Shown piece by piece: positions 51,629 to 52,815 of a stretch of 64,000 nt of DNA. The position numbers and the translations under genes were made by a program. The stretch's first letter is position 1. Each line of letters opens with the position of its first letter. The stretch is from Escherichia coli (lineage in GTDB: Bacteria > Pseudomonadota > Gammaproteobacteria > Enterobacterales > Enterobacteriaceae). The stretch is taken from the NCBI RefSeq assembly GCF_013122565.1, contig NZ_CP053258.1. One strand, 5' to 3'. A model generated the notes under the pieces. The model was not told where the DNA came from, made no database searches, and saw only the letters and a program-made list of their open reading frames with translations.

Positions 51629-52815
51629 CTATATTGCATTTAAAAGGTCGTAATCATACGTATAGTCCTCTCTGGTAAAATATTGCTTCTCTGAGTTATA
51701 TGCTTCATATGTGTTATATTTTACAACCTCAAAGCAATTGTCAGGAGAATTTTCGTCTTTCTCGAGTGTATTATCTGAAAGGAATTCCTCTGAGATAGAA
51801 TCCTCTATGTTTAAATCTGTATTGTAATTAATTTTTGGATCGATAAGATAAGCATTTTCTTTGACGCTTTCATAATCTTTAATGATTATATCGATGTAAT
51901 AATCTATTTTTTCTGATGAGAATCCTTTCATCTCTGGTAATTTAATTCTGTTCAAGTAATTGTTAATTTTCGATGAGCTTTTATATATTTCTTTTGTTAA
52001 TTCATTTTCTAATTGATCTGTTAGAGTTGCTCTTGGTATAGATTCTATAATTGCAAATCTCATAATTTTTAATTGTTCTTCGGTAATATCTCCAAGCTCA
52101 TTTAAACAACTTTCGACAAGCTTAATTTTTTCTTCAGAATACATATCGCAATGCTTGTTAGAACAGGCGTTATTTTTAGTAAATAATCCCAGGAGATTGT
52201 GGTGTTTTGTTTTGAACTAACGAAATTTACCTGAAACATGTTGGCATTAGTAAAATCTGTGTCATCCAATTTAAAAGGGTTTAAAATTGCATTGGCCATA
52301 TGTTTATCTGTAAAATTATAAAGTTCTAAATCGACATTCCGTAAGTCCAGAGAGGATAGATCAACTATACCTCCAGTCCCACAACTAAAAACTACGTTCA
52401 ACCTCCTGATTTCATTGTAAATATCTTTCAATGGGCAATTAACATTGATATTGCCTGTGGATATTTTCTGGTTCTTTAATGGTTCATTAATGGTAAGTTC
52501 ACAAGTATTGTCCGATCGTTGAATAATTTGGGCGTTATAACCTAAAAAATCCAGACGAAGAGACGAGTCATTATAAAGGATTACATTTTGTAAGTACGCT
52601 AATTCTTTTTGGAAATCACCAGTGATAATGCATTTTCCACCTGGTTGTAACGCGTTAAGTAAAGTGACCATTTCAATAGAGGTCTGTTTTAGTTTTTCTA
52701 TACCTGGTGCTAGTGCTTCGAGGTTATTTCCTGTTGGGCTTTCAGGAAGGTCATTCATTTTTCGACGGACTAAATCACTACTAATATCATTACCAATTGA
52801 TGAAACAGGGAGCAT
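51629..52815 (-). pseudogene. yhaC: yhaC (pentapeptide-repeat protein) split by a frameshift into two overlapping ORFs
   Basis: Track ORFs 52102..52815 (237 aa) and 51629..52144 (171 aa) are adjacent on the same strand in different frames with a 43-nt overlap; the span is 1187 nt, one short of the 1188 nt expected for the 395-aa K-12 gene plus stop (K-12 length from memory). Confidence 0.55.

Follow-up and report, generated by a model that had tools for sequence, protein, structure and literature searches.

The yhaC gene of Escherichia coli K-12 MG1655 (b3121) is an unsplit reading frame of 1188 nt, 395 codons plus a stop, and lies in the gene order tdcR-yhaB-yhaC-rnpB-garK. Intact yhaC has the same length in strains TR01, PE164, 961 and O157:H7 3384, and all five of these fetched alleles are annotated as intact 1188-nt CDSs. 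In 92 wastewater E. coli, yhaC is listed with the top genes under positive selection (PMC9110714), and a "promoter island" associated with H-NS and counted as alien DNA has been located in it (PMC3661553). Homologues of YhaC were found only in Escherichia and Shigella.

The closest described proteins outside the family are pentapeptide-repeat proteins. An exhaustive profile search of 1.84 billion representatives returned no full-length relative outside the family; the remote profile matches covered YhaC residues ~140-210 only, and all six matches that were checked were pentapeptide-repeat proteins. For the remainder of YhaC no relative was detectable, and the search yielded no lead to a function. 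One segment of YhaC thus resembles these proteins, which does not make it a member of their families: PF00805 and PF13599 scored 12.8-15 bits against YhaC, below their cutoffs of 20.2 and 38, and nothing in Pfam exceeded threshold for YhaC or YhaB. A sequence search of the PDB gave weak matches to Np275/Np276 over residues 153-198 and nothing significant, and PADLOC gave zero matches.

We analyzed a stretch of 64,000 nt of E. coli DNA from contig NZ_CP053258.1 (the window), in which yhaC is a pseudogene of 1187 nt on the minus strand (51629..52815). Gene order in the window is that of K-12 (tdcA, tdcR, yhaB, yhaC, then garK), which places the locus at the orthologous position; rnpB stands between yhaC and garK in TR01 and K-12, its placement being read from those genomes. 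The synteny of K-12 yhaC is therefore as in the window, whereas the K-12 gene is unsplit and the window copy is split and one base shorter. K-12 YhaC is ~87-88% identical to the window protein, compared with 97-100% for the neighbouring proteins. The yhaB-yhaC island is AT-rich, with a GC content of 0.27-0.40 across 51600-54200 versus 0.52-0.62 in the flanking gar/rnpB DNA. The intact yhaB gene lies 21 nt from the start of yhaC and is probably in the same operon.

Among intact alleles, that of TR01 is nearest to the window yhaC, with 99.07% nucleotide identity and a single gap. A megablast search with window positions 51580-52860 matched 5,404 of 5,426 complete E. coli genomes, where the underlying features carry the names "YhaC family protein" and "protein YhaB"; TR01 was the best match (99.1%). 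Of 31 full-length matches drawn at even spacing from the list, 29 exceeded the window by exactly 1 base in aligned length. The features of the locus are as follows.

52840..53376, minus strand: yhaB, intact; K-12 YhaB matches in tblastn over 179 of 179 residues, with 97.8% identity, in one frame.
52102..52815, minus strand: 5' fragment of yhaC, an ORF of 237 aa with an ATG start, taken from the ORF list, the alignment and the NF007262 match.
51629..52144, minus strand: 3' fragment of yhaC, an ORF of 171 aa with an ATG start, taken from the ORF list and the NF007262 match.
52102..52216, minus strand: zone of 115 nt in which both frames are open, bounded by the downstream frame, open from gene nt 600, and the upstream stop at gene nt 712-714.
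Between 52149 and 52150, minus strand: deletion junction, placed by alignments to six intact alleles.
52126..52131, minus strand: A6 run (plus-strand T6), of unaltered length in all alleles aligned.

The 237-aa ORF consists of native YhaC residues 1-222 followed by 15 residues read out of frame (AICILKKKLSLSKVV); it ends at a TAA (52102-52104) and keeps the pentapeptide-repeat-like stretch at about residues 140-210. The 171-aa ORF corresponds to native Met225-Ile395 with the native stop. The two ORFs share 43 nt (52102..52144). The stretch without a stop in either frame is longer, at 115 nt, since the downstream frame is already open before its first ATG, and the lesion falls within these 115 nt. 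We compared the two products with NF007262, the NCBIfam equivalog model of YhaC (395 positions), for which the curated cutoff of 765 bits applies to the whole protein. The 237-aa product matched positions 1-231 with 499.2 bits (E 7.7e-150), and the 171-aa product matched positions 225-395 with 343.1 bits (E 2e-102), so that either fragment alone falls below the cutoff. The fragments cover consecutive positions of the model, and therefore the ORF pair does not arise by chance. When the frame was repaired, the translation matched NF007262 over its full length with 865.5 bits, above the cutoff. Since the repaired protein alone passes, the locus is a yhaC pseudogene and encodes no YhaC family protein.

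Pairwise and multiple alignments of the window copy with six intact alleles contained exactly one gap column, and the remaining differences were substitutions. The missing base is a plus-strand T, an A in the sense of the gene, at gene nt 667, where codon 223 (AGC, Ser) begins. The sequence around the junction is CATT[A]GCGAT, with the deleted A between T and G. The intact alleles read CATTAGCGAT at this site and the window reads CATTGCGAT; variant readings are CATTAACGAT in strain 961 and TATCAGCGAT in the 77%-identical MFDS allele. A repeat search detected no tandem or direct repeat at 52149/52150. Same-strand ORFs in different frames encode consecutive parts of one protein, a single added A restores 395 codons, and an uninterrupted yhaC is the norm in relatives, all of which is the picture of a frameshift pseudogene.

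An earlier note on this DNA had described two same-strand ORFs of 237 and 171 aa in different frames with a 43-nt overlap, a span of 1187 nt where an intact gene needs 1188 nt, and a yhaC gene broken by a 1-nt frameshift. The ORF list bears out the first of these observations, the lengths in K-12 and four other strains the second, and the alignments, in which the base is missing relative to every intact allele including that of K-12, the third. The same note had looked for the lesion in an A6/T6 run within the overlap. Such a run exists, at 52126-52131 rather than at 52125-52130, and the lesion is elsewhere: it lies 5 nt upstream of the ATG of the 171-aa ORF, in non-repeated sequence beyond the 43-nt overlap. 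The misplacement arose because the site was assumed to lie between the ATG of the second ORF and the stop of the first. Variation in the length of the tract across strains, which the note had suggested examining, did not appear. The A6 tract (GAAGAAAAAATT or ...ATC) has equal length in the window, TR01, PE164, 961 and O157 3384, and also in K-12, the divergent MFDS allele, GF3-3 and BL21, nine alleles in total with the window. Nor did yhaC turn out to be naturally two ORFs in most strains, a finding that would have spoken against a broken gene; single intact ORFs are the norm.

Apart from the missing base, the window allele is well preserved. Putting an A back at nt 667 gave an open 395-aa YhaC with 5 amino-acid differences from TR01, and the alignments to intact alleles revealed no second lesion in yhaC. 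The dN/dS of the window yhaC relative to TR01 was 0.21, and other pairs of intact alleles gave 0.21-0.39. As this value is within the range of intact alleles, there is no sign of long-term decay, and the event appears to be recent.

The distribution of the deletion was examined at its junction. A 71-nt junction query had no gap-free match in the 5,426 complete E. coli genomes, the best match (98.6%) being the gap itself, and the GTDB species representatives lacked the 36-nt junction. Proteins identical to the 237-aa and 171-aa products were found in a collection of 15 billion proteins, each on a single 8,861-bp Logan contig of run SRR11451224. By these comparisons, the deletion is private to one strain or sample. 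In the same collection of complete genomes, the nearest relatives of the window were ~98.6-98.8% identical over stretches of 19-24 kb, and the best strain varied by segment, so the lineage of the window is not closely represented there.

Other E. coli strains have lost yhaC in other ways. About 1,090 of the 5,404 matching genomes keep <80% of the yhaC locus. The gene is deleted in B2 strains; strains of the O25:H4/ST131 type keep only remnants of yhaB-yhaC, as annotated in one O25:H4 strain, and in XH993 an IS1 is inserted in yhaC. In these cases the intact gene is lost as it is in the window, but by insertion or large deletion; unlike the ST131-type remnants, the window retains yhaB and the rest of the island intact. 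Two further yhaC genes are called "frameshifted" in RefSeq. That of GF3-3 (NZ_CP053259.1; 350-1536 of the piece compared) has T6 in place of T7 at about gene nt 267-273, and that of BL21 TaKaRa (NZ_CP010816.1; 349-1537 of the piece compared) has one additional base in an A run near nt 1094. These are single-base indels like that of the window, giving 1187 or 1189 nt, but they are located in homopolymers, whereas the lesion of the window is at the non-repetitive nt 667. They could be real slippage events or consensus errors of long-read or older platforms. Judged from their positions, the GF3-3, BL21 TaKaRa and window lesions are independent events.

Public data contain many other truncated YhaC products, among them C-terminal fragments with Met173 as first residue. 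It is at this residue or shortly before it that many "partial" YhaC products start (…TDKHMANTILNPF…), several of them on contigs of ~8.8 kb; in some, the N-terminal residues are foreign. The pattern points to a place near codon 170, in the K-12-like allele, where contigs repeatedly break or insertions occur. The dS between yhaC alleles reaches about 0.2.

We consider it likely that the yhaC deletion of the window is a genuine, recent, lineage-private loss-of-function mutation and not a slippage switch; of the three options left by the earlier note, true pseudogenisation is the best supported. The main competing explanation is a sequencing or assembly error, in which the strain would truly carry an intact 1188-nt yhaC and one base would have been dropped in the consensus. 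The lesion is a single base and is found in one sample only, and the otherwise intact allele, with no relaxed constraint, is also the pattern expected of an error. In addition, the other two RefSeq "frameshifted" calls in yhaC are located in homopolymers, so artefacts may well occur at this AT-rich locus. Long-read consensus errors and slippage concentrate in homopolymers and repeats, however, and the missing base of the window is outside any homopolymer. A second de novo assembly argues in the same direction: the Logan contig of SRR11451224 is 100% identical to window positions 51487..58815 (7,329 nt), although its read set is possibly that of the window assembly. If the reads are the same, an artefact of the assembler or of polishing is excluded, and a systematic read error may still be involved. 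Furthermore, when 43 K-12 proteins with a counterpart in the 64-kb window were compared, 42 aligned over their full length in a single frame and yhaC alone was split, which indicates that the window assembly is not prone to indels. An error, which the earlier note had kept among its options, is made less likely by the identical assembly and the 42 unsplit genes, and we regard it as unlikely.

The comparison of the window with K-12 also revealed features unrelated to yhaC. The K-12 fimbrial operon yraHIJK has no counterpart at 21800-24250 (no tblastn match), and between rsmI and agaI the window carries divergent ORFs at 21924..22880 (minus strand, 318 aa) and 22929..23906 (plus strand, 325 aa). 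In the aga cluster (29648-32877), full-length ORFs, e.g. one of 377 aa at 29648..30781, stand where K-12 has the agaW/agaA pseudogenes, an assignment based on position. The DNA between prlF/yhaV and garD (36800-44495) is absent from K-12. Most of the closest E. coli genomes lack its part from about 40000 to 44495, which three genomes match at only ~94%; features annotated under these matches include a chbC-like PTS IIC component and 6-phospho-beta-glucosidase. No IS elements were identified in the 64-kb window, a weak argument against a Shigella origin. The 167-aa ORF at 13534..14037, suspected to be IS1, is actually yhbS (GNAT acetyltransferase), adjoining ubiT.

Two other observations concern repeated and overlapping sequence. 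Downstream of rnpB, between this gene and yhaC, a 113-bp unit is repeated 2.5 times in tandem with 94% matches (51109-51389). Each unit contains a GC-rich hairpin followed by a T run (CCCGCTTCGGCGGGTTTTT), and the array is the source of a repetitive 72-aa ORF at 51084..51302. A 740-aa ORF at 3100-5322 on the minus strand runs antisense across all of pnp (3037-5259) and has the same length as the pnp ORF. The antisense ORF had no Pfam match and the plus-strand ORF had the full PNPase domain set; the former probably results from codon bias, although its length is unusual at a genomic GC content of ~50%.

If the deletion is genuine, its course can be outlined as follows. The non-repeated A at gene nt 667, in codon 223, would have been deleted from an otherwise intact yhaC, presumably through an error of replication or repair and not through slippage. 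Ribosomes beginning at the native start would leave the frame after residue 222, add 15 unrelated residues and stop at 52102-52104. The predicted product would keep the N-terminal part with the pentapeptide-repeat-like stretch and lose the C-terminal ~170 residues, a region predicted to be largely helical in a low-confidence model. This AlphaFold2 model of the repaired YhaC, built from a 17-sequence alignment, had a mean pLDDT of 36 and a pTM of 0.28 and was unusable for a fold search. Direct reading of the sequence upstream of the 171-aa ORF (CTAACAAGCATTGCGAT-ATG) revealed no Shine-Dalgarno-like element, which makes its independent translation unlikely; most likely, the 171-aa fragment is not made. 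The truncated product is presumably non-functional. We infer that the loss is neutral or nearly so, because yhaC is often lost or broken in other E. coli. No polar effect is expected, as yhaC closes the yhaB-yhaC unit and is convergent on rnpB.

A less probable explanation than a consensus error is that the broken gene is still partly alive. Low-level -1 slippage of tRNA-Lys on AAG-AAA-AAA (52126-52134) would yield a full-length YhaC in which other residues replace 223-230; the two fragments might instead act as a split protein, or the 222-residue N-terminal module might function as a stand-alone protein. The geometry is suitable for rescue by slippage, in that the A-rich lysine codons sit between the lesion and the stop at 52102-52104, and a weak 8-bp hairpin starts 2 nt after the A run. 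This spacing is too short by the usual rules, however, and the local RNA fold is no more stable than that of shuffled sequence (z = 0.77). In the zero frame, CTG AAG AAA AAA TTA, the only A-rich site of the zone open in both frames is G-AAA-AAA and not the canonical X-XXY-YYZ heptamer, and no Shine-Dalgarno-like stimulator is present upstream of the A run. All alleles natively possess both the A run and the hairpin, which means that neither arose through selection for recoding, and the orthologues are single intact ORFs. Thus, neither a conserved two-frame architecture nor a slippery heptamer with a properly spaced structure, as in a programmed -1 frameshift of the dnaX kind, was found at the locus, and the missing ribosome-binding site of the 171-aa ORF speaks against a split protein. 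Accidental trace slippage on the lysine codons may occur, and nothing suggests that it is selected. We therefore hold recoding or a split protein to be very improbable, and residual activity through slippage or a stand-alone N-terminal module to be equally doubtful. Were the stand-alone module real, selection would favour the truncation of a gene for which positive selection has been reported, and either slippage rescue or such a module would mean adaptive truncation instead of decay.

Tracts that switch at an appreciable rate are usually longer than A6. The idea of phase variation, also raised by the earlier note, in which yhaC would be a contingency locus that slipped-strand mispairing in the A6 run switches between on and off states, is scarcely credible: the run does lie within the ORF overlap, homopolymer-length frameshifts do occur elsewhere in yhaC in GF3-3 (T7 to T6) and BL21 TaKaRa, in tracts that vary in single genomes and may be errors, and positive selection on yhaC has been reported in E. 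coli (PMC9110714), but the lesion is away from a tract that is constant in nine alleles, the deleted A is in no repeat and so leaves no mechanism for reversible slippage, and the locus has neither the homopolymer or short-repeat lesion nor the tract polymorphism of a phase-variable gene.

All in all, the yhaC of the window is most probably an ordinary frameshift pseudogene, confined to this strain, of an orphan gene that is dispensable, AT-rich and hypervariable. For annotation, the locus should be recorded as one "frameshifted" yhaC pseudogene, not as two hypothetical proteins and not as a phase-variable gene; it has little significance otherwise. A frameshift is to be sought wherever neither frame is closed, here over 115 nt, rather than within the overlap from ATG to stop (43 nt), and a homopolymer inside an ORF overlap is no evidence of slippage. 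That yhaC is lost or broken in other E. coli indicates that the gene is dispensable. The window adds one more independent lesion in a gene that E. coli repeatedly loses, which is consistent with weak or conditional selection on yhaC.
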